Notes: generated from the letters alone by a model not told the origin. DNA of 64,000 nucleotides from Ignavibacteria bacterium GWF2_33_9 (GCA_001804565.1 MHAC01000008.1:3446-67445), one strand, 5' to 3'. Positions 6,496 through 48,320 are shown, counted from the first letter of the stretch. A program made the numbers and translations.

Positions 6496-6602
6496 TCTAT
6501 GTTAAATTAATCCTATTTTTTCTTTTATTTTAATATGCAAATTATTGAAATTTATTAAACCAATCTCTATATCTTTTACAACTTTTGGATTATAAAATCA
6601 AT

Positions 6603-9390: not shown

Positions 9391-9726
9391 ATGAATAAAT
9401 ATACAAAATTTCAGTTAGCATTTGCATCATTTCTTTTGATTGCTGTAATTGCTGTATTTTCTACAAATTCTTTTGCCGCTGACACAAAAGATGCTAAAAC
9501 TTGTAATTGCAAAATTTCCACTAAAGTGGATAGTTTCTACGATAAAGACGTTATTGAAAACGAACTCAAAAATGACGAAGGTGTAAAAGACGTATATCTC
9601 GATTTAGATGAAAAAATTGTTTACGTTACTTACAATTATCCCGTTACAGATTCACAAAAACTTTGCAATAAAATCGTTAATTTAGGTTACGACGCAAAAG
9701 TTATGGAAGATTCAAACAAATTGTGA
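9391..9726 (+). CDS. small secreted heavy-metal-associated (HMA)-like domain protein
   Basis: Signal peptide, then a ferredoxin-like betaalphabetabetaalphabeta pattern (CNCKIS...VKDVYLDLDEKIVYVTYN...LGYDAKV) reminiscent of the HMA fold, but with a CxC instead of CxxC motif. Confidence 0.4.
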   Translation: MNKYTKFQLAFASFLLIAVIAVFSTNSFAADTKDAKTCNCKISTKVDSFYDKDVIENELKNDEGVKDVYLDLDEKIVYVTYNYPVTDSQKLCNKIVNLGYDAKVMEDSNKL

Positions 9727-9745
9727 TTATCTTAAGTAATCAGAA

Positions 9746-9780
9746 AAAAGACGCAATGCAAATTGCGTCTTTTTTTTTTG
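9746..9780 (+). terminator. rho-independent terminator
   Basis: AAGACGCAAT-gca-AATTGCGTCTT followed by T9. Confidence 0.8.
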
Positions 9781-9974
9781 CTGTTTTGTGTTATATACTG
9801 TAAGTAAATACTACGCACCCTTTGCTATAACTTACTTGCAAGAATATATTTTATAAATATTTTCAAAAAAAATAAAAATAATTGGGAAAATTTTTGTAAA
9901 TTAAATTTTGAAGAAATGCAAACTTATTAATTAGAATATTTTAGTATTATATTTAAAATTTATTGAGGTTTTTT

Positions 9975-22863: not shown

Positions 22864-25800
22864 ATGAGTTTCTTCCAAAAATCAGTCGTTTCGAAGTATC
22901 TCAATAACCTGAACAAAGAGACAGTCAGTTCTGCTTTTTTGTTATTCAAAGAACATTTCCTTAATCCCGATATTCAGAAAAATATTCGTTCAATCAACGA
23001 AGAACAATATCAGCAGGGTTTCTTCAATGACCTTTTCGTAAAAGTTCTAGGCTATACTCTTAGTCCTAATTCAAACTTTAATTTACTGCCTGAATACAAA
23101 AACGAAAAGGACAGCAAGAAAGCTGATGGTGCTATTGTCATAAATAACAATGTGAGGGCTGTAATTGAGCTGAAAGATACGAAAACAACGGATTTGGGCA
23201 AGGTGGAAACTCAGGCATTCGGTTACAAGAATAATCAGAAGGACTGCCCCTACGTAATTATCTCGAACTTCGAGAAACTACGCTTCTATGTAGATAATTC
23301 AGTTGACTGCATCGAGTTCAATCTCTTTACTCTTTCTGAGGAAGATTTTACCATTCTTTATCTGATTCTTTCATACGAAAGTATCGAAAAGGACATTCCG
23401 AAGAAGCTGAAGAGCGAAACCGTCAATCAGGACGACATTACAACCAAGAAACTTTATAATGATTATTCCGTTTTCAAGAAAGAACTTTTCCAAAATCTTA
23501 TTGCAAAAAATCCAAATTTCGATAAACTTACTCTTTTCAAAAAATCGCAAAAGCTGATAGACCGACTTCTTTTCATTTTCTTTGCGGAAGACCGTGGCTT
23601 GCTTCCTCCCAATTCCGTCCGGCAAATAATTCAGGATTGGCAGAAGTTAGGTGAACTCGACAGCTATTCTCCGCTTTATTCTCGATTCCAAAAGTTTTTC
23701 GGTTATCTCAATACCGGCTACCAAAGCCCAACGCTAAAGATTTTTGCGTATAATGGCGGACTTTTCGAACCGGATGAAGTGTTGGACTCAATTTCTATTG
23801 ACGATGAGATTCTTAATGAGAATACACTCCGGTTGAGCCGTTATGACTTCGAAACAGAAGTGGACGTGAATATTCTTGGGCATATTTTCGAGCATTCGCT
23901 GAACGAAATCGAGGAAATCCAATCCGAACTTGAAGGTAAAGTTCCTGACAAATCTAAATCCAAACGCAAGAAGGACGGAATTTTCTATACTCCTAAGTAT
24001 ATTACGAAATATATCGTGGAAAATACTCTCGGTACTTTGTGCTCGGAAAAACGGATTGAATTTGGTTTGAATGATGACGAAACTGAAGAAACCAAGCGGA
24101 AAGCTGAAAAGAAGGATTTACTCGAGAGGATTGATTCTTACCGCAAATGGCTTTTGGAACTCACTATTTGCGACCCTGCTTGCGGTTCGGGTGCTTTTCT
24201 GAATCAGGCATTGGACTTTCTGCTGAACGAACATCGCCGACTTGATGAGCTTACAGCCCGAACACTTGATTTGCCGATTGTTTTCTCCGATATAGAAAAT
24301 TCGGTTCTTGAAAATAATATCTTCGGGGTGGACATCAACGAGGAAGCTGTGGAAATAGCCAAGCTCTCGCTTTGGTTACGCACTGCCCAAAGAGGCAGGA
24401 AGCTCAATACTCTAAGTAATAATATAAAATGCGGCAACTCGCTGATAGACGACCCCGCTGTTGCAGGCGATAAAGCGTTCAATTGGCAGGAAGAATTTCC
24501 AAGAGTATTCAAGAGTAATATTTCGGAATTTCATCTTGTAACCTTTGCTACAAAATATTCACGAATACCATTTGAAAATATTCCAAAAAACTATAATGAT
24601 GTATTTGTAAAATTAGATGAAGATGAAAGAATAATATTTGCTAAATGTTTAGCAGAAAAAGCTTCAAAATTAAATTTCAAAATTTTAGCAACTGCAATAC
24701 TACCAGACCATATTCATTTAGTATTAGCTACAATGGGTCATTCACTTTCTAAAATCATGAATGAAATAAAAGGATATTCAGCTTATAAAATAAACGAATA
24801 CAGAAGAAGTAAAAAAAGCAACTACACCATTTATGGTGTAGGAGAAAGAGCAGAAGTGGAAACTCCATCTGATAGCAACTACACCCTTCAGGGTGTAGGA
24901 AAGAACACAAAACAAGGGGTAGAAGATACATCAGAAAACCGTGATACAGCCCACATCGTAAACGATGTGGTTGCAGAACAGGATAGCAACTACACCATTT
25001 ATGGTGTAGGAGAAAAAGCAGAGGCTGATACTCCTTCTGATAGCAACTACACCCTTCAGGGTGTAGGAAAGAACACAAAACAAGGGGTAGAAGGTACATC
25101 AGAAAACCGTGATACAGCCCACATCCTAAAGGATGTGGTTGCAGAACAGGACGACAACTACACCATTTATGGTGTAGGAGAAAGAGCAGAGGCTGATACT
25201 CCTTCTGATAGCAACTACACCCTTCAGGGTGTAGGAGATGAGCCACATCGTGTAGGCAATAAGAAAGATACGACAGACAAAGGTACTCCCCACATCCTAA
25301 AGGATTCACCCCACATCCTAAAGGATGTGGTTGCAGAACATATTTGGGGACGCAGGTATAGCAATACTTTTCTTGATGATGATTCTCACTTATATAACGC
25401 TATAAACTATGTAAATAACAATTATGAAAAACACAAAGAGAAGTGGGGCAATCTAGAGAATGAAAAGATATCCCACATCCTAAAGGATGTGGTTGTAGAA
25501 ATAGATATACACGATAGCAACTACACCCTTCAGGGTGTAGGAAATACAACAGAACATACAGATAGTACTCTGTCCCACATCCTAAAGGATGTGGTTGCAG
25601 AACAGGACGACAACTACACCATTTATAGTGTAGAAGAAAAGAAAGATACAACTGATAGCAACTACACCCTTCAGGGTGTAGGAAAGAACACAAAACAAGT
25701 GGTAGAAGGTACATCAGAAAACCGTGATGAAGCCCACATCCTAAAGGATGTGGTTGCAGAACAGGACCGCAACTACACCATTTATGGTGTAGGAGAAAAG

Positions 25801-27489
25801 AAAGATACGACTGATAGCAACTACACCATTTATGGTGTAGGAGAAAAAGCAGAGACTGACACTCCTTCTGATAGCAACTACACCATTTATGGTGTGGGAG
25901 AAAAGAAAGATACGACTGATAGCAACTACACCCTTCAGGGTGTAGGAGAAAAAGCAGAGACTGACACTCCTTCTGATAGCAACTACACCCTTCAGGGTGT
26001 AGGCAATAAAAACCAATTCTCATACTTTTCCGGCGGCTTCGATGTCATTATCGGCAATCCTCCATACGGTGCTGAATTGGATAATAAAACTAAAGAGTAT
26101 TTTAAAACAATTTATAATGATGTTCATTATAGAACAATTGATACTTTTAACTATTTTATTTCTAAATCTCTAAAAATTCTTAATCATAATGGTTTTTTAT
26201 CTTTAATTGTTCCTAATAATCTTCTATACCAACATGAGTATTTTGTAACAAGAAAATTATTAGTTGAAGAAAATAAGTTGATTAGAGTTATTAATTTAGG
26301 AGATTCTGTATTTCAAGATGCAGATGTACCTACTTGTGTTTTTATTGTCAATAAAATTAAAGCTGAAAATTATAAATTTGAATATAAAGATATTCGAAAT
26401 GAAGTTATTAAGCAAGAAAAAATTAATGAAAATTTCGATTTAATCAGTTCGAATACTATTTTACAATTACCTTCAAATATTATTGGCATCTCTGATAAAA
26501 TTTTTAATTTGATTGAAAAAGTAAATTCTAAATCAGTTTTAATTGATGAAATTGCCGAAGAAGTCGCTTCAGGTATATCTTCTGGAGGAGATAAAATCTT
26601 CAGAATTTCAAAAGAATTTGCAGAATCAAATTTGTTTGAAAAGGAATTATTATATAAAGTTCTAGTTGGAAGTGAAATGAATAGATATGCATTAAATTCC
26701 TCAAATAATCTTATTATTTATTCAGTAAAATCATCAGAAACCGAAAAAAAATCGAATATTTACAATTATTTATTAAATTTCAAAGAACAATTATCTCGAA
26801 AGAGGGAAACTCTAAAAGGAACTTTACCATGGTATTGTTTGCATTGGCCACGTTATAAAGAATTGTTTACAGAAGAAAAAGTCATTTTAAGACAAACATC
26901 TGATGATATACGTGCTACCTATGATAATATGGGATATTTTACACTTGATAGTATATTAATTTTAAAATTGCTAAAAAATGATTATTCATATAAATTCATA
27001 ACATCATTATTAAATTCTAAAATTATAAGTTTCATATATAAGAATCTTACAATGGAAGAAGGAAGGACTTTTGCACAAGTCAAGCCTATTAATATCCGTA
27101 AACTCCCTATCCCAAATATCTCTCCCAATGCCCAGCTCCCTTTCATCGAAAAAGCAGATTTAATGCTGAAGTTGAATAAAGACCTGCAGGAAGGAAAAAA
27201 TGCTTTTATTACCTTCATAAAAGGTGAATATAATTTAGATAGAATCAATACCAAACTGGAAGAATGGTACAATTTGCCTTTCGACAGCTTCACAAAAGAA
27301 CTCGAAAAACTGAAAGTGAAACTAACTTCCACTCAGAAATACGACCTGAAGCCCCTTTTCGACCGAGAAGCCGCCAAACTTTTGGCAATAAAAACCGAAA
27401 TCGAAACCACCGACCGAGAAATAGACCAAATGGTATATAAACTCTACGACCTAACAGAAGAAGAAATCAAGATAGTGGAGGGGAAATAA
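22864..27489 (+). CDS. Type IIG restriction-modification enzyme (N-terminal PD-ExK nuclease plus gamma-class N6-adenine MTase plus TRD; MmeI/Eco57I-like) carrying a 1.5-kb in-frame insertion
   Basis: PD-ExK: ADGAIV...VIELKDTK (nt 23124-23175). MTase motif I is ICDPACGSGAFL (nt ~24172). FNWQEEFPRVF is followed only after about 500 aa by GGFDVIIGNPPYG (motif IV, nt 26032-26070); in family members these two segments are separated by about 10-20 aa. The C-terminus ...MVYKLYDLTEEEIKIVEGK is the hallmark tail of this family. Confidence 0.7.
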   Translation: MSFFQKSVVSKYLNNLNKETVSSAFLLFKEHFLNPDIQKNIRSINEEQYQQGFFNDLFVKVLGYTLSPNSNFNLLPEYKNEKDSKKADGAIVINNNVRAVIELKDTKTTDLGKVETQAFGYKNNQKDCPYVIISNFEKLRFYVDNSVDCIEFNLFTLSEEDFTILYLILSYESIEKDIPKKLKSETVNQDDITTKKLYNDYSVFKKELFQNLIAKNPNFDKLTLFKKSQKLIDRLLFIFFAEDRGLLPPNSVRQIIQDWQKLGELDSYSPLYSRFQKFFGYLNTGYQSPTLKIFAYNGGLFEPDEVLDSISIDDEILNENTLRLSRYDFETEVDVNILGHIFEHSLNEIEEIQSELEGKVPDKSKSKRKKDGIFYTPKYITKYIVENTLGTLCSEKRIEFGLNDDETEETKRKAEKKDLLERIDSYRKWLLELTICDPACGSGAFLNQALDFLLNEHRRLDELTARTLDLPIVFSDIENSVLENNIFGVDINEEAVEIAKLSLWLRTAQRGRKLNTLSNNIKCGNSLIDDPAVAGDKAFNWQEEFPRVFKSNISEFHLVTFATKYSRIPFENIPKNYNDVFVKLDEDERIIFAKCLAEKASKLNFKILATAILPDHIHLVLATMGHSLSKIMNEIKGYSAYKINEYRRSKKSNYTIYGVGERAEVETPSDSNYTLQGVGKNTKQGVEDTSENRDTAHIVNDVVAEQDSNYTIYGVGEKAEADTPSDSNYTLQGVGKNTKQGVEGTSENRDTAHILKDVVAEQDDNYTIYGVGERAEADTPSDSNYTLQGVGDEPHRVGNKKDTTDKGTPHILKDSPHILKDVVAEHIWGRRYSNTFLDDDSHLYNAINYVNNNYEKHKEKWGNLENEKISHILKDVVVEIDIHDSNYTLQGVGNTTEHTDSTLSHILKDVVAEQDDNYTIYSVEEKKDTTDSNYTLQGVGKNTKQVVEGTSENRDEAHILKDVVAEQDRNYTIYGVGEKKDTTDSNYTIYGVGEKAETDTPSDSNYTIYGVGEKKDTTDSNYTLQGVGEKAETDTPSDSNYTLQGVGNKNQFSYFSGGFDVIIGNPPYGAELDNKTKEYFKTIYNDVHYRTIDTFNYFISKSLKILNHNGFLSLIVPNNLLYQHEYFVTRKLLVEENKLIRVINLGDSVFQDADVPTCVFIVNKIKAENYKFEYKDIRNEVIKQEKINENFDLISSNTILQLPSNIIGISDKIFNLIEKVNSKSVLIDEIAEEVASGISSGGDKIFRISKEFAESNLFEKELLYKVLVGSEMNRYALNSSNNLIIYSVKSSETEKKSNIYNYLLNFKEQLSRKRETLKGTLPWYCLHWPRYKELFTEEKVILRQTSDDIRATYDNMGYFTLDSILILKLLKNDYSYKFITSLLNSKIISFIYKNLTMEEGRTFAQVKPINIRKLPIPNISPNAQLPFIEKADLMLKLNKDLQEGKNAFITFIKGEYNLDRINTKLEEWYNLPFDSFTKELEKLKVKLTSTQKYDLKPLFDREAAKLLAIKTEIETTDREIDQMVYKLYDLTEEEIKIVEGK
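24532..26031 (+). mobile_element. in-frame insertion: split RAYT/IS200-like Y1 HUH transposase domain plus REP-like hairpin array
   Basis: EFHLVTFATKYSRIPFE...ILATAILPDHIHLVLAT...IKGYSAYKIN matches the TnpA_IS200/RAYT N-terminal half (yHlvw.tKyRr; HUH motif HIHLV). HIWGRRYSNTFLDDDSHLYNAINYVNNNYEKH (nt 25340-25440) matches the TnpA C-terminal half (WqrSYydhvird...l...YI.nNP). The two halves are separated, and also followed, by palindromic repeat arrays. Confidence 0.6.
24822..26002. repeat. tandem array of three perfect-hairpin palindrome families with GTAG/CTAC ends (REP-like), 168-bp in-frame period
   Basis: H1 CTACACCA-TTTA-TGGTGTAG (e.g. 24822-24841, 24990, 25158, 25614...). H2 CTACACCC-TTCA-GGGTGTAG (24879-24898...). 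H3 CCACATCC-TAAA-GGATGTGG (25118-25138...). A variant CCACATCG-TAAA-CGATGTGG at 24951-24970 keeps the pairing through a compensatory change. H1 start-to-start distances are 168, 168 and 456 nt (24822, 24990, 25158, 25614) and 148, 60 and 55 nt thereafter, so the regular 168-bp period applies only to the first part of the array. Confidence 0.85.
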
Positions 27490-35076: not shown

Positions 35077-36549
35077 CTATATTTTCACAAATTTAATTGC
35101 TGCTCTTTTCGTTCTATAATCAATAATTAATGTATAAAAACCTGATGGGAAATGAGTGAAATTAAGGTCTAATGGCACCCCTCTGTTAACATTGCCTCTA
35201 TATATTTCAGTGCTGTTACCCAGCAGGTCAACTATCTCAATCGTTGCAAATCCTGAAAACTCATTATTCGTTTGTAATCGTGCAAAATCAGAAACGGGAT
35301 TGGGATAGAGTGAATTTTTTTTTAGAGCAATTTCCTGAATTCCTACATCATCTGGAACACCATAGTATATATATACAAATGGTGCATTTGGCCATGGTTT
35401 ATTTGAAATTCTTGGATTTAAAACTAAGAATATTTCTCCTTTTTTTGTGACCGAGGGTGATGCATATGCATAATAATTATAATCATAAATTGTATCAAGA
35501 ATAGGCATGGGAACAAAAGAAAATGTTTCTCCAAAATCATCAGATATCATCAGACTGTCAATATTAAGAGTATCACTAAATCCAAATCCATATGAAGAAC
35601 AACCCAATTTACAAACAATATAATTATTATTACTACAAGCCATTAAAGTAATTGGATTCATACCACCATAAACATTAAGATAGTTCAGTAAATACGTTTT
35701 TTGAGAATTGTTTTTTTCATCATAACCAAAAAGACCATAAATACTTGTTTCATTAATCAAACTATCCCGAATTACATGAGAATAAATAAATTTTCCATCA
35801 TTTAGTTCAATCTGTTTATAAATACTAAATTGTTCTTTATCAAAAAAACATAATTTAATATTCTTAAATAAATCAGTAGTAGAATATAAATTATTAAATG
35901 TTGAAATTAGTATAGTATTACTCTTACTATCATATGTATAATCTTGGAAGGACATTAAATCTTTGTCTATAGCAATATTAAGTGAATCATCTGAAGATTG
36001 CCTGGGAATCAATTGAGTTAATGATTTTTCTTTAGAATCAAATATGAGTAAATAAGTTTGAACTTGGTCATTTGCCTTTATGAAATATTTTCCGTTTATA
36101 TATTCTCTTGGTCTAGTAAACGTCATATTTTTTTCATTAATAATATTAATAGTATCGACAATATTTGTGTGCAAATCTTTGATATATATATTACATAAGC
36201 TATCTTTCTTCATGCCTGTTATTATCAATTTATCGTTACTATCTATTATATAATCAATATAACTACCATTTTGTGGAAAAGCAATTTGCCAGCTTTTTCC
36301 ATTATCATCAGACTGATAAATGCTTCTTTGGTATAAAGTATAATATCCTCTGCCTCCAATGATTAATATACCATTTGAAGATTTTTGAATTTTCGAATAA
36401 ATATAATCAGAAGTGTCTTTAGTACCGTCTATACTTGCTAGTTTTGTCCATTTGTAATGTTTGGTTGAATAAATTTGAGCAGTTAAATTTGCTGAACAAA
36501 ATAATATCATTCCATAAAACATTAAAGTTATTATAACTGATGTTTTCAT
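35077..36549 (-). CDS. BNR/Asp-box repeat protein with T9SS C-terminal sorting domain
   Basis: Signal peptide. Asp-boxes SDDNGKSW and SDDFGETFS. The CTD is LYPNPVSDFARLQ...GFYTLIIDYRTKRAAIKFVKI. Confidence 0.6.
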   Translation of the reverse strand: MKTSVIITLMFYGMILFCSANLTAQIYSTKHYKWTKLASIDGTKDTSDYIYSKIQKSSNGILIIGGRGYYTLYQRSIYQSDDNGKSWQIAFPQNGSYIDYIIDSNDKLIITGMKKDSLCNIYIKDLHTNIVDTINIINEKNMTFTRPREYINGKYFIKANDQVQTYLLIFDSKEKSLTQLIPRQSSDDSLNIAIDKDLMSFQDYTYDSKSNTILISTFNNLYSTTDLFKNIKLCFFDKEQFSIYKQIELNDGKFIYSHVIRDSLINETSIYGLFGYDEKNNSQKTYLLNYLNVYGGMNPITLMACSNNNYIVCKLGCSSYGFGFSDTLNIDSLMISDDFGETFSFVPMPILDTIYDYNYYAYASPSVTKKGEIFLVLNPRISNKPWPNAPFVYIYYGVPDDVGIQEIALKKNSLYPNPVSDFARLQTNNEFSGFATIEIVDLLGNSTEIYRGNVNRGVPLDLNFTHFPSGFYTLIIDYRTKRAAIKFVKI

Positions 36550-36613: not shown

Positions 36614-37489
36614 TTATTTATTTATAATAAATTTTGTATTTGTAAGGATATGGGACTCATTTGTTATTCGTAAATTATATTTTCCATTAACAAATTTTGA
36701 TAAATCCAAAGTTAATTCATATGTGTCAGAAATCTTATTTATCATAATTTGATAAACTAATTTTCCAAGATTATTATAAATTTCTAAAGTAAATTCTTCT
36801 TTAGAAAAACCATTCAATGTGATCTTAAAATGCCCATCATTTGGATTAGGAATAATTGATGTTGTTAAATAAGCATCAATATTAATATCTTGAACAGGTT
36901 TTTTATATAAATAACCATTTGGGTCACAAATATAAGTACAATTATGTCCCTCCCAATCTAAACAACCAGTATGTTCTTGATCATCATCATCTCCAACAAA
37001 ATGTAAAATTCCATTTTCCACATAATAATAGCTTTTGCAGCAATATACATTATTGGGACAAGGTTGTGATTTAGGGAATGGACCAAGTAAATCTGAGGAC
37101 CAACAAGAAGATAAACTTAGTTTTACAATAGTTCCATCAACTAAATTAAAGGAAATTTTATTTAAAAATCCTTTTAATACTTGTTTTGCAAATTCAACGT
37201 CATTTGGCATATTCCAACAATTATATTGAAGACATGTATAATTGCCTTCCCAGTAGTCAATGTGAAACTGATATTCTTCAGGTGGAATATTGTTTGGACA
37301 ATTTGCAATTCTGTAATGATAATGAACTAATACTACGCAACCATAACAATTTGCTATCCATATTTCTTCTGTACCTTCTTGCCAATCGCCGGTACAATCA
37401 CCTAAATCACAAGGTGGCTCCCATTGCGATAATAATTGAAAATTTATACTAAACATTAGTACAATTAAAATTAATATGAATTTCTTCAT
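36614..37489 (-). CDS. cysteine-rich secreted protein with T9SS C-terminal sorting domain
   Basis: Signal peptide MKKFILILIVLMFSINFQLLSQ (ATG 37489). About 25 Cys residues in the mature region. The CTD is IIPNPNDGHFKITL...KYNLRITNESHILTNTKFIINK. Confidence 0.6.
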   Translation of the reverse strand: MKKFILILIVLMFSINFQLLSQWEPPCDLGDCTGDWQEGTEEIWIANCYGCVVLVHYHYRIANCPNNIPPEEYQFHIDYWEGNYTCLQYNCWNMPNDVEFAKQVLKGFLNKISFNLVDGTIVKLSLSSCWSSDLLGPFPKSQPCPNNVYCCKSYYYVENGILHFVGDDDDQEHTGCLDWEGHNCTYICDPNGYLYKKPVQDINIDAYLTTSIIPNPNDGHFKITLNGFSKEEFTLEIYNNLGKLVYQIMINKISDTYELTLDLSKFVNGKYNLRITNESHILTNTKFIINK

Positions 37490-37540
37490 TTTTGTAACTC
37501 CTAATTGTTTTAAAAGATTAAAAAAGTCTTTTTTTCTTCT

Positions 37541-37700
37541 CGGCTTATTTTCAAACTTCTTAAGCCAAACTTGAGGGCAAGTTTTTGCTGAGGTGGGGGT
37601 AAAGCAAACTTCATTAAACAAGGCTTAAGAACCAAATGTTAGTTTGCACCCCTACGTATATCGAAAGCAAACTCACAATTCATTTTAAATAAATCCCGAA
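37541..37700 (-). promoter_or_regulatory. conserved structured 5' leader/promoter element (copy A) upstream of the Cys-rich T9SS gene
   Basis: About 75% identical to 46620-46770 over about 150 nt. Shared blocks are CATTAAACAAGGCTTAAGA and AGTTTGCA(A/C)CCC. The CTTAAGCC...GGCTTAAG inverted repeat and the ACTTG-loop-CAAGT hairpin are conserved, with a different loop in each copy. Confidence 0.55.
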
Positions 37701-38450
37701 TAATTTTGAAATTGAAATTACTTTGGCAATTATTATTTTTCCTGTAATTACAATCTGATTTTTGCTCATATTTTTTTGGGATTTTGATACAATAAAATTC
37801 GTCTGATTCGTCTCTACGTAAGCATATAAGCCCATCTTGTGTCCTTTTCAGAATATACTTCATGCAATATATTTATTGAAGAAATCATTTTCAATTCTTA
37901 AATATATTTTTCATCTATTAAAAAAATTTCTATGCAAATTACAAAGAAAAAAGAAATAAATAACAACATATTTAAAATATTTTTTCAAATTGCAATCCTT
38001 CCTATATACTAAACACCAAAAATAGCCAAAAATTACACTTGAGATGAAAAAATACTATTGAAAATAGTCCAAAAGGGGTAGAGACTTCGCATGCTACGTC
38101 TTTTAAATGCAATTTAAATTTCACTATTTCTAGTACCTCTATACAGTTCAGAATGACTTACAAATAAAAGTCCCTCACTTTAGGGAGAGGGATTAAGGGA
38201 AAAGTCGAATTTTATAACAGTTTGTTCCCCGTGTCAAGCACGGAAAGACAGTGACATCGTCCCCCTTTTTAATCACTTTTACTTTTCCTGATTTCTTCTG
38301 TAACAAATTCACTCTGAATAAATACTGGAAATTGAAGGACAAATATAATAATTTAAATAAATTGCTGATATATAAACAAAATATGCAATATAAACAAAAT
38401 ATTTCGTTATTATCGTCTTTTAAGTATTGATAATTCAAATACATAAATAT

Positions 38451-40727: not shown

Positions 40728-40844
40728 AAATATTTTTGTGATTTTCAATATTAAAAAAATATTTTTGAAATTTATTTTGTAGATTAAAAAAATCTTTGTA
40801 ATTTTGTATTCTATTCTAAACGTTCTTTAGAAAAAAAACGATTT

Positions 40845-40917
40845 GCCACTTTAGCTCAGTTGGTAGAGCAGCTGATTTGTAATCAGCCGGTCGGCGGTTC
40901 AAGTCCGTCAAGTGGCT
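40845..40917 (+). tRNA. tRNA-Thr (anticodon UGU)
   Basis: Manual fold: acceptor GCCACTT/AAGTGGC, D-stem GCTC/GAGC, anticodon stem GCTGA/TCAGC with loop TTTGTAA (anticodon TGT), T-arm GGCGG-TTCAAGT-CCGTC. CCA is not encoded. Confidence 0.85.
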
Positions 40918-41497
40918 CACTGAATAGAAAAAGCCCTCCAGTTATCTGGTGGGCTTTATTGTTTTATTGACTTCAATTTGGTTACGATTTAATTATCTTA
41001 TGATATTTCAATATTACCAAGTACTGCAGTTTTTTTGATAATTTGATAAAGGTCTAAAAATCTTTTTGCTCTATCATTAATTTTTGTATGCATTAAACCG
41101 CTTTCCGAGACTATTATAAATAGCTTATTAAAAAGATTATCATTATTTTTATATTCGTCAGAATTCAAGGTCATCCTACTTATTATTGTTTATTTTAATT
41201 TCCCTTAGAACTTCGAGAATCTCTCTTTTCTTAATTTCTTTCTGACATTCAAGTCGTTTCTTGTTTCCTACCAATGTACAATACTTGTCAGCAAGTTATT
41301 GCTTGTTCTTTTTATTTTATTTTTACAAAATTTGTCGATATTCTCCTTTTTTTCGACACTTTTGTCGACATTTATTAAAACATTGAAAGATTGAAATTAA
41401 TACAATTTCTTTAATATATAATACTTACTGCACTTGGCACGTTTTTTTATTGTTTAAAATCAATTATTTTTCAAAAATTTTTAAAAAAGGTAAAAAA

Positions 41498-42214
41498 ATG
41501 AAAAAGATTTTTGTTTCAACTATTGCATTATTTGTAATAGTGTTTTTGGTAGGCTGTTCAGATACAACATCACCTAATGAAGGTACTGTAAACGTTGTAA
41601 GTGAAATGTTGAATCCTTCAGTTAGTATTGTTCCTGTGAAATCAAAACTAAACAATGAAATACAGGCAAACGAAGTTGATTCGATTAAAATCACAAGTAT
41701 TAGGATTTTATTATCAGAAATGAAGCTACACTCAACTACGACTGATTCAACTGATGGTAAAGCACTAAAAACAACTCCATTCTTGTTCCATATTGATACT
41801 TTAGGAAATTTAATCCAACTAACTTCAACCTCAATTCCAGTAGGTTCGTATGAAAAGATAAAGTTGGAATTCCATAGATTTAGTTCGAGCGAAACTTCCC
41901 AATATGCAACTGACCCAGTTTTAAAGGATTTCGCAACTTCTGATCGTTATACTGTAATTATCAATGGAACATATTTCAAAAACAATTTACCAACGGATTT
42001 TACGTATAATTCGAAGATTACAGCCAATTTGACATTCAATTTTGTTCCATCAATTAATATTGAAGAAGGAGCAACTACAACAATTTCAATTCAAGTTGAT
42101 CCCACTCTTTTCTTCAAATTGAACGGGAGCATTCTTGATCCGACAAATTCAAAGAATTTCAGTGTTATAGAAAATGCTATCAAAAATTCAATAAAAGCTC
42201 AAAAACGTGCATAA
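41498..42214 (+). CDS. hypothetical lipoprotein
   Basis: MKKIFVSTIALFVIVFLVGCSD (lipobox LVGC), preceded by RBS-like AAAAAGGTAAAAAA. Ser/Thr-rich mature protein. Confidence 0.5.
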   Translation: MKKIFVSTIALFVIVFLVGCSDTTSPNEGTVNVVSEMLNPSVSIVPVKSKLNNEIQANEVDSIKITSIRILLSEMKLHSTTTDSTDGKALKTTPFLFHIDTLGNLIQLTSTSIPVGSYEKIKLEFHRFSSSETSQYATDPVLKDFATSDRYTVIINGTYFKNNLPTDFTYNSKITANLTFNFVPSINIEEGATTTISIQVDPTLFFKLNGSILDPTNSKNFSVIENAIKNSIKAQKRA

Positions 42215-42266
42215 TTCACCGAATTATTAAATTAACAAAATTTACAAAACTTAAAAAGGTGTCTTT

Positions 42267-43445
42267 ATGACAAATTCTATCTTAAAAATAATGATTATTG
42301 TTATTACTTTATCTTGTTCTTCACAAATTTTCGCACAGGAAAAAAATATTTCTATAGGATTAGGATTAGGTCTTTCACGTGGTGTGAACGAAGCTGATCC
42401 TATCGAAAAGCAAATTGGTCCTTTGTTTGGAATTTACGGGCTCTATAAAAATGGTTTTGGAGAAAATTTTACTCCTGAAGTTAGTATTTCATATTATCTC
42501 AATAGCACCAATGATATTGGTGGTATTTCCCAATACAAAACTTCTTTTTTTACTCCTGAATTAAGGGTAAGATATTATTTCCCAACTGACTGGGAAATAG
42601 AACCTTATGCTTTTTTAGGTTTAGGTGCAATGATCTATAATGTTCAAGATGTACCCATCAACGCAGATCCGGATTCCGAATCTGACGGCATTGCACTCAG
42701 CATACCAGCTGGTTTAGGATTTAGTTATTCTTTAAGCAGTAAATGGGCACTCGACCTGAATGGTTACTATAATTTTTCGACCACTGACAATTTAAATCCT
42801 GTTTGGGATGATATTCTAGATGGAAACTGGGCTGCTAGACTTGGTATTCATTATACTATATTAGAAATTCAAAAAGATACTGATGGGGATGGATTATCTG
42901 ATGAAGATGAAGCGAAATACGGTACTGATCCAAATAATCCTGATTCCGATAACGACGGTCTGAAAGATGGAAAAGAGATTAATAAATATAACACGAATCC
43001 TCTTGAAGCTGATTCTGACAATGGTGGAATAAAGGATGGAATTGAAGTTGTGAATGATGCAAACCCACTTGATGGCGATGATGATATAATGAGTATACCT
43101 GTCGGTGGGAATTTAATTACTAAAAATATTGAATTCGAAACTGGAAAAGCAACTCTTACTCCTTCTTCCGACAAAACCTTAAATAATGTTTTGACAGCAA
43201 TGAAGGCTGCTCCGGATATGGAACTACGTATTACAGGTCATACAGACGATACCGGAGAACGGGACCAGAATATCAAACTTTCTCAAGATCGGGCAGAAAC
43301 AGTTAAAGCATGGTTAGTGGCAAGAGGAATCTCGTCAAATAGGATTACAACTCGTGGGTTAGGTCCTGATGAGCCATTAGTACCTAATACAAGTGATGAA
43401 AATCGTCAGAAAAACAGAAGAGTTGAATTCAGTAGAGGCAAATAA
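42267..43445 (+). CDS. OmpA-family outer-membrane protein with thrombospondin type-3 (Ca-binding) repeats
   Basis: Signal peptide. N-terminal beta-barrel (ends ...GIHYTI). DTDGDGLSDEDE / DPNNPDSDNDGLKDGKE / DSDNGGIKDG are TSP3 repeats. C-terminal OmpA_C: ITGHTDDTGERDQNIKLSQDRAETVKAWLVARGI...NRRVEF. Confidence 0.8.
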   Translation: MTNSILKIMIIVITLSCSSQIFAQEKNISIGLGLGLSRGVNEADPIEKQIGPLFGIYGLYKNGFGENFTPEVSISYYLNSTNDIGGISQYKTSFFTPELRVRYYFPTDWEIEPYAFLGLGAMIYNVQDVPINADPDSESDGIALSIPAGLGFSYSLSSKWALDLNGYYNFSTTDNLNPVWDDILDGNWAARLGIHYTILEIQKDTDGDGLSDEDEAKYGTDPNNPDSDNDGLKDGKEINKYNTNPLEADSDNGGIKDGIEVVNDANPLDGDDDIMSIPVGGNLITKNIEFETGKATLTPSSDKTLNNVLTAMKAAPDMELRITGHTDDTGERDQNIKLSQDRAETVKAWLVARGISSNRITTRGLGPDEPLVPNTSDENRQKNRRVEFSRGK

Positions 43446-43481
43446 AACTAATAAATTTTTATTTTCAGTTTACATTACATT

Positions 43482-43507
43482 AATCCCCTATTTAGGGGAT
43501 TTTTTTA
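43482..43507. terminator. bidirectional intrinsic terminator
   Basis: AATCCCCTA-ttt-AGGGGATT followed by T7. Sits between convergent genes. Confidence 0.7.
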
Positions 43508-44287
43508 TTCCCCAATAAATTTCGGTTTTCTTTTTTCTTGGAATGCCCTCTTCCCTTCTAAGTAATCTTTGCTGTCATAAACCTTTCTCCGTAAGCCCTG
43601 AATTCTTTCGAATGTATCGGGCGAAATTGCACTCGAATCTCCCAAAATACGCAGTTGCTCTTTAATTACGGCTATACTCAGAGGAGAATTCTGAAGCATT
43701 TGCTCAGCAGTAAACATAGTGAATTCTTCGAGTTGTTCGATTGATGGAACAAGATGATTCAACACACCATAATGTTTTGCCTGATGTGCATTAATTGGCA
43801 ATGCAGTAAAAAACATTTCCTTTGCAAGATGTAAACCAACCATATTCACAAAATGCAGAACTCCGCTCGGATTGTAAGGCACACCAATCTTTGCAGGAGT
43901 AATGGCGAAAGAAGCTGTTTCGGTACCTATTAATAAATCGCAGACAAAAGCCAAATCGCAGGCACCACCCCAAACACTCCCTTCTATCATCCCGATAACC
44001 GGACCGGGATAATACTGAATAGCTCTTATGGTTTGCTCGATAGGTTCATTATAGGAAAGTGGGTCTCGGCCCGGTTCCGGCAATTCATCAATATCGAAGC
44101 CCGCTGACCATACTTTGACTCCGGGATTTGCTCTTATGATTACAACTCGAATCTTATGGAACTTAAAGTCATCTAAAGCAAGAATTATTTCGTAAAGCAT
44201 ATCCCTGCAAAGTGCATTTCTTTTTGCATCATTATTGAAAGTGATAATTCCAATTGAATTTTTAATGTGAGATTTGATATAATCCAT
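43505..44287 (-). CDS. enoyl-CoA hydratase/isomerase (crotonase) family protein, methylmalonyl-CoA decarboxylase (YgfG/ScpB)-like
   Basis: Crotonase fold motifs (VWSAGFDIDE, GSVWGGACDL). The C-terminal FERIQGLRRKVYDSKDYLEGKRAFQEKRKPKFIGE closely resembles what I recall of the E. coli YgfG C-terminus. Confidence 0.6.
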   Translation of the reverse strand: MDYIKSHIKNSIGIITFNNDAKRNALCRDMLYEIILALDDFKFHKIRVVIIRANPGVKVWSAGFDIDELPEPGRDPLSYNEPIEQTIRAIQYYPGPVIGMIEGSVWGGACDLAFVCDLLIGTETASFAITPAKIGVPYNPSGVLHFVNMVGLHLAKEMFFTALPINAHQAKHYGVLNHLVPSIEQLEEFTMFTAEQMLQNSPLSIAVIKEQLRILGDSSAISPDTFERIQGLRRKVYDSKDYLEGKRAFQEKRKPKFIGE

Positions 44288-44387
44288 AATTTCTAATTTG
44301 TTTTAATAAATAAATACAAAATTATGAATAGTAAAGGTAAATTTGATAATAATATTTTTATAGTTTAATCAGACCTATTCTATAAAC

Positions 44388-44415
44388 AAAAATCCCTCGA
44401 TAGAGGGATTTTTGT
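44388..44415 (-). terminator. intrinsic terminator for the upstream minus-strand operon
   Basis: AAATCCCTC-gat-AGAGGGATTT with flanking T/A runs. Confidence 0.7.
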
Positions 44416-44492
44416 TTTGTTGTCATTTCTGCGTATGTAGGAATCTATATATTTCTGTAGAGTTGCTCTCAGTCCTCTCTCTACATAACACT

Positions 44493-45734
44493 TTATAATT
44501 TCACGAATTTAATTATTTCTTTTTTATTTCCATAATCAAGTATTAAAATGTACTGACCAGAAATTAATCCTGAAATGTCTAATTGTAAATTATTTCCCGA
44601 GGTATATCCTTCCCAAAGTAATATTTCATTCCCTTTTAAATTTACAGCTGAGATTTTACCTGAAAATTCTTCTTTTAATTCCAATATTAAATTTGAATTT
44701 GCAGGATTTGGGAATGCCTTTATCTTACTTTCCGTAATTGTCTTAACAGAATTAAATATATTTTTATATTCCGTTCTTATTACACCGTATGTTTTAGAAC
44801 CGGCAAAGAGAAAATCACCTACTCTACAGAAAGAATTTATTCCATCGGAAATACCAATATAGTGCGATGTATATTCAGGCTCCCAAGTCTCACCGAAATC
44901 ATACGAAATATAAATACCATTATGATTTGTTCCTGCAAGAATAGTATTTCCCTCAACATAAACTGCATTAATTCTTTGTAAGGCTAAAGAATCAATAGGA
45001 GTAATTCTCACCCAATTTTCTCCCCAGTCATTTGACCTGCAAATACCTCCTCCAAAGGTTGAGGCATAAAGAAATCCTTCGAAATATTGTAATCCGTATA
45101 TTGCTTGAAAGCTTATACCATTATTTCTTTCGTGCCAGCTTTCACCATCATTCGAAGACATCCAAACTCCGATATTATTCATGCCAAGAAATATTTTATC
45201 ATCAATAATAAGAAATTTATTTGTAGTTAAATATTTCTTCCAATCCGGTAAATCAACAAAATTTTCTTTAATTTCCCAAGGTGTAGAATCTGAAATTTTT
45301 GAACGACTCAAACTAACTGTTCCACCAACAAAAACAAAATCGTCTTTGATTCCAACGATAGTTCTTAAGTTTAAAGATGAATCTCCAATTCCTTCAATAT
45401 ATTGACTCCAGTTATAGCCAAAGTCGGTTGACTTTAAAACGGGCTTGCGACTTGCAACTCCCACAAATACAACATTATCATTGGCTGCAATACTCATCGC
45501 ACCGGCAGTCATAAAATCGGTGTTGATGTACCATGTTTCTCCATGATCAGTACTTATGTCAAGATTCATGTTATCAGTCATGTATAAACGATTACCATAT
45601 AATGTTAACTGAACTGCTAACATAGATGTCCCATTTGGTGGATTTTTCTGTTGCCAAAATGGATTTGATAATAATGCGTAATGCGTGAAGGCAATAAATA
45701 AAATTACCCAATGCAGCAAATTTTTAGTTTTCAT
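44493..45734 (-). CDS. BNR/Asp-box repeat (Ycf48-like beta-propeller) protein with T9SS C-terminal sorting domain
   Basis: Signal peptide MKTKNLLHWVILFIAF. Asp-boxes STDHGETW, STDFGYNWS, SNDGESWH, SNDWGENW, SYDFGETW. CTD: KAFPNPANSNLILEL...GQYILILDYGNKKEIIKFVKL. Confidence 0.65.
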   Translation of the reverse strand: MKTKNLLHWVILFIAFTHYALLSNPFWQQKNPPNGTSMLAVQLTLYGNRLYMTDNMNLDISTDHGETWYINTDFMTAGAMSIAANDNVVFVGVASRKPVLKSTDFGYNWSQYIEGIGDSSLNLRTIVGIKDDFVFVGGTVSLSRSKISDSTPWEIKENFVDLPDWKKYLTTNKFLIIDDKIFLGMNNIGVWMSSNDGESWHERNNGISFQAIYGLQYFEGFLYASTFGGGICRSNDWGENWVRITPIDSLALQRINAVYVEGNTILAGTNHNGIYISYDFGETWEPEYTSHYIGISDGINSFCRVGDFLFAGSKTYGVIRTEYKNIFNSVKTITESKIKAFPNPANSNLILELKEEFSGKISAVNLKGNEILLWEGYTSGNNLQLDISGLISGQYILILDYGNKKEIIKFVKL

Positions 45735-45746
45735 CATCGCCTCCAT

Positions 45747-46553
45747 TTACCATAAAAACAGTGGATTAGTGCAACCGGCTGTACATTCTGAATTCATCAC
45801 CATTGTTACTGTATAAGTAATACCCAATATATCAACAGTATCATTTACAGATAAACAAGGTGGACCGGATGGATTAACCGGACATGGTTCTGATAGTTGA
45901 CTCGGTAATCGTTCCCATATAGTTTCATCGTATTGATTCTGGCAAAAGAGAAAATCTGTGTAACAACAAACTTCATCATTGCATATTTTAGGTACATATA
46001 CAACTGCATCAGGTTCGCCCGGTGCAGACAATCGTGCACCACATACTTTTTTACAACTTGCAATTGCATATTTCCTAAAACGCATTTTCTCGGGGCAAGG
46101 GAATTGGCTCTTAATACTTTGGAAAAGAACAGAGTCTAAATCCTTATATAAGGTTATTTCCAAGGCATCGTAATTTGATTGATCTAATGGATTATTGATA
46201 CATCCATTATCACTTGGAGGTGGTTCAGGTGGACCGGGATGTAAGAAACATATTAAATCAGGACAATCGTATATGTTTACTTTGATGTAATTTAGGTCAA
46301 TAAAAACAGTAGGTTCTGGGCAATCACATGTTTTCATCCTATAGAAAACTGTGATATCGCATGTAATTCCTTGAAAATTAACTGGTATTGTTATATTTCC
46401 TGTAGTTTCAATACTACAATTACTACACAATGCAAAATCTTGTTGATAACAAGAAGTAAATGGCCTTCCAAGACTTGTTTGAGAATAAACAAAACTACTC
46501 CCAAACATCAAAAGAAATGCAAATATGTAGTATATTTTTATAATGCGTTTCAT
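45747..46553 (-). CDS. cysteine-rich secreted protein (no CTD), immediately upstream of and zero-gap coupled to the BNR T9SS gene
   Basis: Signal peptide MKRIIKIYYIFAFLLMFGSSFVYSQ. 29 Cys residues (CDC, CPDLIC, CxxxC patterns). Pro-rich PGPPEPPPSD. Its stop abuts the ATG of the downstream gene. Confidence 0.55.
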   Translation of the reverse strand: MKRIIKIYYIFAFLLMFGSSFVYSQTSLGRPFTSCYQQDFALCSNCSIETTGNITIPVNFQGITCDITVFYRMKTCDCPEPTVFIDLNYIKVNIYDCPDLICFLHPGPPEPPPSDNGCINNPLDQSNYDALEITLYKDLDSVLFQSIKSQFPCPEKMRFRKYAIASCKKVCGARLSAPGEPDAVVYVPKICNDEVCCYTDFLFCQNQYDETIWERLPSQLSEPCPVNPSGPPCLSVNDTVDILGITYTVTMVMNSECTAGCTNPLFLW

Positions 46554-46619
46554 TTTTTTACCTTCAATTTAATTTATTCGTATTCTCTTTTCATTACGAA
46601 ATAGAGTTTAATTAAGTTA

Positions 46620-46770
46620 TACTCCAAACATCTTAAGTCTAAAACTTGATTTCAAGTTTTTACTGGAGTGGGTATCGCAAATTACATTAAACAAGGCTTA
46701 AGACGAAAATATAAGTTTGCAACCCTTTGTATTTCGAATTCATACTCACAATAGAGGACATACAGTTTAG
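46620..46770 (-). promoter_or_regulatory. conserved structured 5' leader/promoter element (copy B)
   Basis: Paralogous to 37541-37700 (see that entry). Lies 70-220 nt upstream of the 45747-46553 gene's ATG. Confidence 0.55.
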
Positions 46771-47011
46771 TGGTATATTGTGAAGTAAATTGTATATCTT
46801 GAAAATGATTTATTTTAAGGTTTGTTTCCTCATTTAAAACAATAATTGAAGAATCAAAGATTTTTTCTTTGATGAATTTAATAGGAGTTATTTTCGAAAT
46901 ATTATAATGTTTATTAGTAGGTTTTGCCCACTTTGACGGCTCAGCGGACATCTTATCGCTAATAATGAATAAAAATGCAGCTATTAAACAATATGTAAAA
47001 ACTCTTTTCAA
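46682..47011 (-). CDS. small secreted hypothetical protein (the ORF may in part reflect the conserved leader element)
   Basis: Signal peptide MKRVFTYCLIAAFLFIISDKMSA. Its C-terminal YCEYEFEIQRVAN is encoded by the conserved element, and the 37639-37863 ORF ends with the similar NCEFAFDIRRGAN. Confidence 0.3.
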   Translation of the reverse strand: MKRVFTYCLIAAFLFIISDKMSAEPSKWAKPTNKHYNISKITPIKFIKEKIFDSSIIVLNEETNLKINHFQDIQFTSQYTTKLYVLYCEYEFEIQRVANLYFRLKPCLM

Positions 47012-47097
47012 ATAATTCCATAATTTAATTAAAAAAAAAAGTAAAAAAGTACGGTTGAAAAATCAGCCGGACCTTCTAAATCAAATTGAAACAAATC

Positions 47098-48201
47098 TCA
47101 ATACATATCTAACCTTGGGAATAATATTTTTAAACATTGGATAAAAATTTCGCCACATTGTTTTATACAACTGTTATTTCCTTGACCACACATATTCAAG
47201 CACAAATTGTAAGCATCATAACAAATTCTAAGGTTTGGATCTACAGCAGTCATTTGAATATAACTACCAGAATCGCCTGCTCCAAGTATGTATCCACATT
47301 GATAATGAATACAATTTATTGAGTTATTATTTCCAACATTTAACGTTGTCCATGCGTTACCATTATCATCAGTTTGATATATTAAACCATTATCAGCACA
47401 TACTACAATAGAACTATCAGAAAATGCAACTAGAGAGGTGAAATTAACTCCTGATGAAGTTTGTGGCGGTGCAATTGAATCCCAACTTTGTCCCCCATTT
47501 GTTGTTTTACAAATTAATTTATCTTCGCCAACAACATAACCGACTAAGCTATCTACAAACTTTAATGACAATATATTCTTATTGATGTTAATATTCGAAG
47601 ATTGCCAATTAGTGCCTTGGTTTGTTGATTTTGAGATAAAACCTCCAGTACCCCCAACATAAATTAAATTACTATCTGACTGGAAAACGTAGATAGAATT
47701 TAACGAATTAACAATAAAATACTGATAATTCACACTCCAATTACTGCCGCCATTCGTTGTTTTTAAAATAATTCCATTATTTCCAACTGCCCATCCAAGA
47801 TCTGAATTTGAAAATCTTATTTGATTTATTCTGGACTGGATTTGCATATTCATATCATCCCAATTTTGTCCTCCGTCAATTGTTTTTGCTGCTTTTCCAT
47901 TATCTCCAGCTACCCAACCAACCAGAGAATCAATAAAAAATATTGAACGTAAGTTTACATAATTTGAACTTGATATTACATTGTTTATTCTTTGCCAAGA
48001 CTGACCGTTGTTTGATAAAAATACTACATTACTATCTGCACAGATATTGTTTCTCATATCTTCACTAATAAAGCAAGAATTAAGATTAATGTTCGTATTC
48101 AATGTCTTGGTTGTATCAGTTTGGGAAAATAAGATAGTAGGAAAAAAAGCAAGAATTAACAGCATTACTCTAAAAAAGCAAATTTGAAAATGATTTTTCA
48201 T
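47098..48201 (-). CDS. BNR/Asp-box repeat beta-propeller protein with Cys-rich C-terminal tail
   Basis: Signal peptide. Asp-boxes DGGQNWD, TNGGSNW, TNQGTNWQ, TNGGQSWD, DDNGNAWT. The C-terminal 60 aa contain 10 Cys (CYDAYNLCLNMCGQGNNSCIKQCGEIFIQC). Confidence 0.6.
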   Translation of the reverse strand: MKNHFQICFFRVMLLILAFFPTILFSQTDTTKTLNTNINLNSCFISEDMRNNICADSNVVFLSNNGQSWQRINNVISSSNYVNLRSIFFIDSLVGWVAGDNGKAAKTIDGGQNWDDMNMQIQSRINQIRFSNSDLGWAVGNNGIILKTTNGGSNWSVNYQYFIVNSLNSIYVFQSDSNLIYVGGTGGFISKSTNQGTNWQSSNININKNILSLKFVDSLVGYVVGEDKLICKTTNGGQSWDSIAPPQTSSGVNFTSLVAFSDSSIVVCADNGLIYQTDDNGNAWTTLNVGNNNSINCIHYQCGYILGAGDSGSYIQMTAVDPNLRICYDAYNLCLNMCGQGNNSCIKQCGEIFIQCLKILFPRLDMY

Positions 48202-48277
48202 TTCAACCTCAATTTTTTTTTCAAAATTATTAAAATAAAATTTATTGACAAAATAATTTTTTTAAATGTATGTATTA

Positions 48278-48320
48278 GTAATCAGCCGGTCAGAGGTTCA
48301 AGTCCGTCAAGTGGCTCTCG
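48278..48320 (+). repeat. degenerate direct repeat of the tRNA-Thr 3' half (att-like remnant)
   Basis: GTAATCAGCCGGTCAGAGGTTCAAGTCCGTCAAGTGGCTC matches the tRNA from the anticodon loop to the acceptor 3' strand (40877-40916) with 3 mismatches. The mismatches break the T-stem, so it is non-functional. Like the genuine tRNA, it is followed by an AAGCC...GGCTT hairpin plus a T-run. Confidence 0.75.

Follow-up and report, generated by a model that had tools for sequence, protein, structure and literature searches.

The 64,000-nucleotide (nt) stretch of Ignavibacteria bacterium GWF2_33_9 analyzed here (GCA_001804565.1, MHAC01000008.1:3446-67445; hereafter, the window) comes from a groundwater metagenome-assembled genome of an uncultured member of the Ignavibacteria from the Rifle aquifer, and it carries, at 37541-37700 on the minus strand, a conserved noncoding element of about 135 nt that recurs at 46620-46770. 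We propose that this element is the promoter-proximal transcribed leader (5' untranslated region, or 5' UTR) of a cis-regulatory cassette of about 400 nt, which GWF2_33_9 and its close relatives would reuse before several otherwise divergent secreted-protein operons, placing them under common control. The typical operon encodes a cysteine (Cys)-rich signal-peptide protein followed by a BNR protein or by a protein with a type IX secretion system (T9SS) C-terminal tail. As a whole, the reading of a shared promoter-plus-5'-UTR cassette with an RNA stem-loop, common to several secreted-protein operons and carrying a repeat that possibly tunes them, has in our judgment about an even chance of being correct.

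The two leaders, copies A and B, had drawn attention in a first-pass annotation of the window because they share long identical blocks, and this similarity is real and far beyond chance. They are ~79 to 80% identical over ~135 nt (MAFFT alignment; BLASTN E = 2.6e-25), a repeat search returned 88 nt at 80%, and the window contains exactly two occurrences of the 19-mer CATTAAACAAGGCTTAAGA, against 0.1 expected when up to three mismatches are allowed. A covariance model built for the leader (R1) places them as follows.

37544-37680, minus strand: copy A leader (the element in question), from AATTGTGAG to just past the GGCTTAAGA box; R1 score, 160 bits
46617-46753, minus strand: copy B leader; R1 score, 130 bits

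The similarity between A and B has sharp edges, with AATTGTGAG at its start and GTTTGAAGT at its end. Nothing aligns outside these edges, neither the upstream small open reading frame (ORF) sequence nor the downstream spacer, Shine-Dalgarno (SD) sequence and signal peptide. The Cys-rich proteins encoded downstream of A and B are not alignable with each other (BLASTP E = 0.39), and the second genes of the two modules have only a T9SS C-terminal domain in common. Because flanks and downstream proteins are unalignable, the conserved piece is a discrete unit, better conserved than the genes behind it, and not the residue of a gene duplication. As first described, both leaders are positioned ahead of the ATG of a secreted/T9SS-type module and on its coding (minus) strand, although their nearer edge is 55 to 70 nt from the ATG (37487-37489 in A, 46551-46553 in B) rather than ~70 nt. 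In nhmmer searches, conservation reached ~280 nt further upstream in copy A (to ~37950) and ~70 nt further in copy B. As it thus extends beyond 37541-37700, that span represents only part, the 3' third, of a cassette of ~400 nt.

In all, 13 distinct copies of the cassette were recovered, every one from groundwater metagenomes and from GWF2_33_9 or its relatives. Copies beyond the window were reached via proteins, using a profile of the translation of the block upstream of the leader and then fetching the source contigs. The first protein encoded behind copy B (B1) has one distinct homologue among 5.8e9 proteins (P0002, 58% identity). Its scaffold, L023, carries a diverged copy of the cassette upstream of P0002 and a second copy 3.5 kb away, before a third Cys-rich secreted protein. 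Both L023 copies have in common with copy A an extra upstream block of ~150 nt that is open in one frame (..FYCIK..NYRKN..FKIIRDLF.MNCEF..). The profile of this translated block retrieved 7 proteins among 5.8e9, and an exhaustive HMMER search with it retrieved 12 representatives among 1.84e9 proteins; the traced sources of these 12 were all environmental metagenome assemblies, and the word-index matches were Rifle-type groundwater samples. Pattern scans at the DNA level yielded chance matches or none: 18 loci in GTDB, whose representatives do not include the source genome, were all seed-only chance matches in unrelated taxa (pattern AAACAAGGCTTAAGN{6,20}GTTTGC), JGI metagenomes gave one chance match (pattern CTTAAGCCTTGTTTAATN{2,8}TTTGC), and viral contigs contained no copy. 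Searches of the window and of the fetched loci with nhmmer likewise added no copy. The covariance model missed the most divergent copies, L035 and L036, whose hairpins were compared by hand. The element is restricted to one narrow lineage.

All copies with known downstream sequence lie directly ahead of a codirectional gene for a signal-peptide protein. Such a protein is usually Cys rich and lacks a Pfam match, and a large BNR or Por_Secre_tail (T9SS) protein is often encoded next. The upstream neighbors, by comparison, vary in identity and orientation among loci, and it follows that the element belongs to the downstream operon. That the element is the leader of a secreted-protein regulon, one of the possibilities raised by the first-pass annotation, is plausible on these sequence grounds. 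The genes behind the two copies in the window are as follows.

36614-37489, minus strand: gene A1, Cys-rich secreted protein bearing a T9SS sorting domain at its C terminus (Pfam Por_Secre_tail, E = 1e-11)
35077-36549, minus strand: gene A2, BNR/Asp-box protein with a T9SS tail (Pfam)
45747-46553, minus strand: gene B1, secreted Cys-rich protein, no Pfam match
44493-45746, minus strand: gene B2, BNR/Sortilin-like propeller protein with a T9SS tail (Pfam)

Gene A1 has an SD sequence, AGGAG, at 37498-37502, and its product is 75% identical to its homologue at locus L031. Copy B is located behind a BNR gene and a 109-amino-acid (aa) ORF and so may sit within an operon.

On the gene strand, the cassette consists of a distal box, a conserved box, an 8-nt tandem repeat, an A-rich block of ~135 to 155 nt and the 135-nt leader, which are followed by a spacer, the SD sequence (AGGAG or AAGGA) and the ATG. 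The spacer between leader and SD sequence is AT rich, unconserved and ~25 to 100 nt long. The parts upstream of the leaders are listed here.

37866-37946, minus strand: distal part of cassette A, with the distal box and a second promoter-like site as its putative functional elements
37830-37852, minus strand: conserved box just 5' of the repeat (TCTGAAAAGGACACAAGATGGGC; ..GAAAAGGGCGCAAGATGGGC), from the alignment of regions upstream of the repeat
37816-37831, minus strand: 8-nt tandem repeat, GCTTATAT followed by the degenerate unit GCTTACGT; 2 units in the window
37681-37815, minus strand: upstream conserved block of copy A, open in one frame and overlapping the called ORF 37639-37863 (nhmmer, 37547-37821)
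37682-37710, minus strand: candidate sigma-70-like promoter TTCAAA-N17-TAAAAT (consensus scan), abutting the 5' start of the A/B similarity
46754-46822, minus strand: degenerate remnant of the block in copy B, inside the called 109-aa ORF 46682-47011 (nhmmer model positions 74-272 matched to 46822-46623)

The hexamers of the candidate promoter are aligned in most copies, with the cassette consensus TTCAAA-N17-TAtTAT, and transcription starting from it would place the leader at the 5' end of the operon mRNA. The second promoter-like site of cassette A reads TTGAAA-N17-TATATT (37866-37894). The distal box, TTTGTAAnTT(G)T at 37930-37946 in copy A, resembles a box 37 nt upstream of the tRNA-Thr gene of the window. 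A scan for the Bacteroidetes-type motif TTTG-N18-21-TAnnTTTG gave 7 matches against 3.9 expected, with none in the cassettes, a result that speaks neither for nor against this promoter type. Sigma-54 and extracytoplasmic function (ECF)-type motifs were rejected by inspection.

Comparison of copy A with L031, whose downstream proteins are 75% identical, suggests constraint on the cassette. Fourfold-degenerate sites of these genes are 50% identical, compared with 79% identity for the leader and 71% for the block, and the spacer is unalignable; the cassette is thus held tighter than neutral sites.

The claim that the leader is structured holds for a single stem-loop, which we call Pa. RNAalifold applied to nine leaders returned one long hairpin, with no covariation bonus and with the consensus GGGG-T-GCAAACTT / AAGTTTGC-nnnA-CCCC. 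The same hairpin is at the same position in 12 of 13 minimum free energy (MFE) folds, and the sense strand folds more stably than its complement in 10 of the 13 copies. In a model-fitted alignment of 11 copies, 94.9% of the Pa cells are paired, a value reached by none of 500 shuffles on a measure that leans toward the fitted structure. In the window, Pa and the smaller hairpin and box that follow it are located as follows.

37641-37652, minus strand: 5' arm of Pa in copy A, GGGGTGCAAACT (RNAalifold consensus; MFE folds)
37611-37640, minus strand: loop of Pa in copy A, containing the 19-nt block that A and B share exactly (read on this strand as TCTTAAGCCTTGTTTAATG)
37596-37610, minus strand: 3' arm of Pa in copy A, AGTTTGCTTTACCCC (RNAalifold consensus; MFE folds)
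46713-46725, minus strand: 5' arm of Pa in copy B, GGGTTGCAAACTT (MFE fold)
46670-46683, minus strand: 3' arm of Pa in copy B, AATTTGCGATACCC (MFE fold)
37567-37586, minus strand: small ACTTG hairpin of copy A, AAAAACTTG-CCCT-CAAGTTT, not conserved
37558-37566, minus strand: GGCTTAAGA box of copy A, a CTTAAG-like box close to the cassette's 3' end and found in almost every copy

Divergent copies keep the stem of Pa through compensatory changes. In L035 it is a 14-bp stem (GCAACAAATGTAGA/TCTATGTTTGTTGC) in which GCAACAAA/TTTGTTGC replaces the canonical GCAAACTT/AAGTTTGC, with 4 pairs altered on both sides; L037 has a 10-bp stem (GGTTGCAAAC/GTTTGCAACC) around an unrelated 26-nt loop, and one of the two copies on scaffold L023 (L023b) has a 7-bp stem (GGGTTGC/GCAACCC) with an 18-nt loop. 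The 19-nt block of the Pa loop is missing from these three copies and is therefore dispensable. On the gene strand, the non-Watson-Crick pairs of Pa comprise seven G-U pairs versus one A-C pair (11 copies), so that Pa, if its structure matters, forms on the minus-strand transcript. The same count led us to reject an RNA made from the plus strand, which two G-U pairs in copy B had made us suspect.

The other pairings proposed for the leader fared less well. An inverted repeat noted in both copies (P1) is perfect in copy A (TCTTAAGCC, 37622-37630; GGCTTAAGA, 37558-37566) but contains a single C.A mismatch on the gene strand in copy B (GACTTAAGA, 46631-46639). The ACTTG...CAAGT hairpin, whose unlike loops in A and B had been taken as a covariation-like pattern, does form in both copies, but a differing loop is not covariation, and no compensation is seen in its stem among nine copies; the hairpin is lost in L028, L034 and L023b and has broken pairs in L031, L032 and L033. 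When Pa, the ACTTG hairpin and P1 (the pairing of CTTAAGCC with GGCTTAAG, which would form a pseudoknot) are considered jointly in nine copies, 87.7% of cells pair, with a double change at only one pair. All departures within P1 break pairs, as do those within the ACTTG hairpin except for two G-U cells at one pair, and both helices are missing from L028, L034, L023b, L035 and L037. With no compensatory change in either, P1 and the ACTTG hairpin were rejected as conserved structures. The GGCTTAAGA-like box is kept even without its proposed partner, which argues for a sequence motif rather than a helix arm.

The most variable part of the cassette is the tandem repeat, with units of GCTTATAT, GCTTTATG or GCTTATTG in 2 to 12 copies in 11 of the 13 cassettes; L037 has just two degenerate units, and copy B has none. 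At the copy A locus, the window has 2 units and an independent assembly has 9 (L020, 18723-18794), and the two assemblies are otherwise 100% identical over 20.7 kb. L024 and L025 have seven units each, and the repeat terminates several contigs and coincides with a gap in one scaffold. These observations, of which the comparison at the copy A locus is the one informative contrast in length, fit a hypermutable simple-sequence repeat. The repeat is sited in the promoter/5' region, and its unit of 8 nt is not a multiple of 3. We also considered that the repeat acts as a switch, in which slippage by 8 nt changes either the frame of ribosomes traversing a long leader or the geometry of the promoter and thereby turns T9SS cargo operons on or off. 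Of the three frames, A terminates at the hairpin or within it, B runs to a conserved TGA located 115 nt past the anchor, and C closes after 9 codons. Such a switch seems rather unlikely to us; if it does exist, these operons would be phase-variable, fast-diversifying surface-protein modules in free-living groundwater Ignavibacteria, serving, for example, to evade phages or predators. As a separate observation, a 240-aa "protein" in the databases (P0014) consists almost wholly of translations of several separate 8-nt repeat arrays (AYMLICLY..), and some loci in this lineage hence carry multiple arrays.

Several other explanations of the leader were weighed, and some of them could coexist with a shared promoter-plus-leader cassette. 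The first-pass annotation suggested a riboswitch or an attenuator, and a ligand- or ribosome-sensing device in which the CTTAAGCC/GGCTTAAG pairing competes with the long hairpin to gate expression can indeed be drawn: the arms of P1 interleave with Pa, allowing a pseudoknot or an alternative fold, AGTTTGC occurs twice around a single GCAAACT, and the leader is on the gene strand upstream of the ATG. However, the leader matched none of the 4227 families of Rfam 15 at the gathering threshold or at E <= 10 (at gathering thresholds, the window contains only the tRNA-Thr, and the best match to 37400-37950 at E <= 10 was a 14.6-bit chance match to a Drosophila small Cajal body-specific RNA), and neither locus has a terminator-like site on either strand. 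The distance from hairpin to SD sequence varies from ~75 to ~190 nt across an unconserved spacer, the leader structure does not sequester the SD sequence, and the first AGTTTGC is not conserved. The candidate family is limited to one narrow lineage, and in place of a multihelix aptamer with covariation and a conserved junction or loop, only one hairpin is conserved. The most conserved block, of 19 nt, belongs to a loop missing from distant copies, an observation that speaks against an aptamer for a ligand. Given also the uncompensated changes in P1, the absence of an Rfam match, of a terminator and of a fixed SD spacing makes a riboswitch or attenuator very improbable. A separate gene for a small RNA, on either strand and simply adjoining the operons, would explain the sharp bounds of the A/B similarity, and copy A forms a good fold on its plus strand (z = -3.5); yet no terminator is found on either strand, the G-U bias and the greater stability of the sense fold both point to the gene strand, and the element always lies directly upstream of an operon in the same orientation. 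We consider this explanation quite improbable.

The cassette might instead encode a small protein or a translated upstream ORF, with the leader representing its 3' end and the intergenic spacer. Its frame is open in all recovered copies for 47 to 62 codons past the anchor, and gene callers predict these ORFs (37639-37863 and 46682-47011 in the window). In the upstream block, the ratio of nonsynonymous to synonymous change (pN/pS) in this frame is 0.55, versus 0.87 to 0.94 in the other sense frames and 0.67 to 0.94 in the antisense frames; entropy at codon positions 1 to 3 is 0.42, 0.34 and 0.55, being highest at position 3; and the sole indel in the block is 3 nt long and in frame. Nevertheless, the copies were found by protein search, so that openness of the frame reflects ascertainment bias, and every copy has a second frame that stays open for ~38 codons, in keeping with the A-rich composition. 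No start codon or SD sequence is conserved, the called starts lie inside or upstream of the variable repeat, and the N termini are translations of that repeat (e.g., AYMLICLY or MALWLYGF). Stop positions vary among copies, with one L023 copy (L023a) stopping early. The product has no Pfam match, and its representatives number only the 12 mentioned above. Within the leader itself, synonymous change does not predominate: most A/B differences in the ORF frame fall at codon position 2 (five changed codons), and conservation continues for ~90 nt past the stop of the copy A ORF (GAN*). The view that the leader is noncoding therefore stood. For the upstream block the signals are ambiguous, and a small protein or translated upstream ORF appears unlikely. 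The small ORFs called across the element are probably artefacts, as was first suspected in part.

A last alternative is that the cassette functions as DNA, either as a homology cassette homogenized by gene conversion or as a mobile promoter module for shuffling secreted-protein genes, with RNA structure being irrelevant. The block and leader of copy A are 99% and 92% identical to those of L027 despite unrelated downstream genes, an identity well above that with L031 and its similar proteins. The cassettes L023a and L023b (at 9630-9990 and 13080-13400 on their scaffold), 3.5 kb apart, have identical 5' halves (distal box, seven units and the start of the block) and differ in their leaders and downstream genes, a pattern that points to recent gene conversion or duplication. 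Contigs also often break at the repeat. Because cassette similarity is at odds with the kinship of the downstream genes, concerted evolution has probably acted alongside or instead of purifying selection. On the other hand, orientation and position relative to the ATG are fixed, the examined loci show no terminal inverted repeats, target duplications or nearby recombinase, viral contigs lack the cassette, and the 7:1 G-U bias and compensatory stem changes are unexpected for a purely double-stranded DNA function. We accordingly give this alternative a small share of the probability. Two specific classes were rejected, namely, a miniature inverted-repeat transposable element or other mobile repeat (constant orientation upstream of a signal-peptide gene; no flanking repeats in the alignments) and an integron attC site (by inspection, the arms TGCAAAC / GTTTGC(C/A) misfit the RYYYAAC / GTTRRRY core, and no locus has an integrase or a cassette array).

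A number of points also weigh against a shared promoter-plus-leader cassette. The start site is a prediction from sequence; in three copies the candidate -10 hexamer does not have the important A at its second position; and L035, L036 and copy B have no good -35 hexamer. Copy B, which has no tandem repeat and has lost most of the block, may be read through from upstream genes. Covariation is weak among close relatives, with one pair showing a double change and the best compensation coming from a single divergent copy. The pN/pS ratio and the in-frame indel of the upstream block amount to a mild coding-like signal, much of the conservation among paralogues could be due to gene conversion rather than selection, and the difference in repeat length could be an assembly artefact.

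If the proposed cassette nonetheless operates as we envisage, the leader would be transcribed with its operon, and Pa, lying close to the 5' end, would act posttranscriptionally, most simply as a 5' stabilizer or as a processing or protein-binding hairpin, and would give members of the family a common expression level. The length of the upstream repeat may in turn modulate or switch expression.

Three known systems offer parallels. In Mycoplasma vlp/vsp genes, the promoter and 5' region are highly conserved and include a hypermutable tract. As in that system, paralogous loci here have a near-identical upstream noncoding region and encode secreted or surface proteins that have diverged beyond alignment, a simple-sequence repeat lies upstream, and the copies show signs of concerted evolution. 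Unlike the mycoplasmas, the host is a free-living groundwater bacterium and not a host-associated pathogen; in addition, the 8-mer lies ~110 to 125 nt upstream of the candidate -35 rather than being a homopolymer between -35 and -10, and the signal peptides are outside the conserved unit. Repeats in promoter regions also serve as rheostats or contingency loci, such as the 7-bp repeats of Haemophilus influenzae hmw and the TAAA tract upstream of the promoter of Neisseria nadA. The cassette resembles these in having a short repeat, with a unit that is not a multiple of 3, upstream of surface- or secreted-protein genes and in the differing number of units (2 versus 9) between otherwise identical sequences, but only one locus could be compared with both flanks, where an artefact is possible. 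In contrast to both systems, ON/OFF switching of the cassette is hypothetical. Finally, stem-loops in the 5' UTR of Escherichia coli ompA and in the Bacillus aprE leader act as stabilizers. Like these, Pa is a stem-loop close to the putative 5' end of mRNAs that encode exported proteins, with a stem that is kept, a variable loop, no terminator and no SD sequestration, whereas its 5' proximity is a prediction, its stem is conserved in sequence (GCAA/TTGC core, GGGG/CCCC), and it is common to a family of genes instead of being tied to one. Rfam cis-regulatory motifs, including those of the Fibrobacteres-Chlorobi-Bacteroidetes (FCB) group, are likewise intergenic and upstream of genes, but no family matches. 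No curated family holds the element, which is an undescribed, lineage-restricted cis-regulatory leader cassette and not a new category.

If correct, our reading would mean that several fast-diverging secreted-protein/T9SS-cargo operons of uncultured Ignavibacteria are under common control and that a hypervariable repeat may make their expression switchable. As contingency loci are known mainly from host-associated pathogens, their logic would thereby be extended to an environmental bacterium of the subsurface, and a regulon would be defined for proteins of unknown function. Since the element occurs in one narrow lineage and its mechanism is putative, its general importance is modest. A practical consequence is that public protein databases probably contain annotation artefacts in the form of small ORFs predicted across these regions.

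Some features near the cassettes deserve mention. Upstream of copy B, a BNR/Ycf48-like protein (47098-48201, minus strand) has a Cys-rich tail instead of a T9SS sorting domain, and its gene is preceded at 48222-48252 (minus strand) by a perfect Bacteroidetes-type promoter-like motif, TTTG-N19-TAATTTTG, owing to which copy B may be internal to a four-gene operon. At L027, the Cys-rich gene behind the cassette (6412-7055) is apparently frameshifted: a signal-peptide ORF from ~6412 is only 44 codons long, and the Cys-rich part is read in a different frame (a called 126-aa ORF), indicating either a pseudogene or an assembly error. Upstream on scaffold L023 are polymorphic-toxin and immunity genes (Tox-MPTase3, Imm-NTF2-2 and DUF4329) and a ParE/RelB pair.

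The intact tRNA-Thr gene of the window (40845-40918) has a 44-nt copy of its 3' half (93% identical) 7.4 kb downstream, at 48274-48317, with a terminator-like hairpin of its own behind it. The two sites resemble the attL and attR of an integrated island (40919-48273) that contains the copy B module; no integrase was recognized in it, and a 254-aa ORF (41450-42214) has no Pfam match. The surroundings of the intact gene (40816-41296) form a second locally variable spot, where the JGI assembly for this genome (L021, 15257-15718) differs from the window only by small indels or rearranged segments at the tRNA-Thr and just downstream. Elsewhere in the window, a single 1541-aa ORF (22864-27489) looks like a type IIG restriction-modification/N6-adenine methyltransferase gene into which a segment bearing an HUH-type motif (LPDHIHLVLA) is set in frame, like that of IS200-like REP-associated tyrosine transposases (RAYTs; REP, repetitive extragenic palindromic). 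This segment is followed by arrays of two types of perfect-hairpin repeats, CTACACC-ATTTAT-GGTGTAG and CCACATCC-TAAA-GGATGTGG (24814-26009), and the whole arrangement resembles a REP/RAYT cluster within a gene that stays open.

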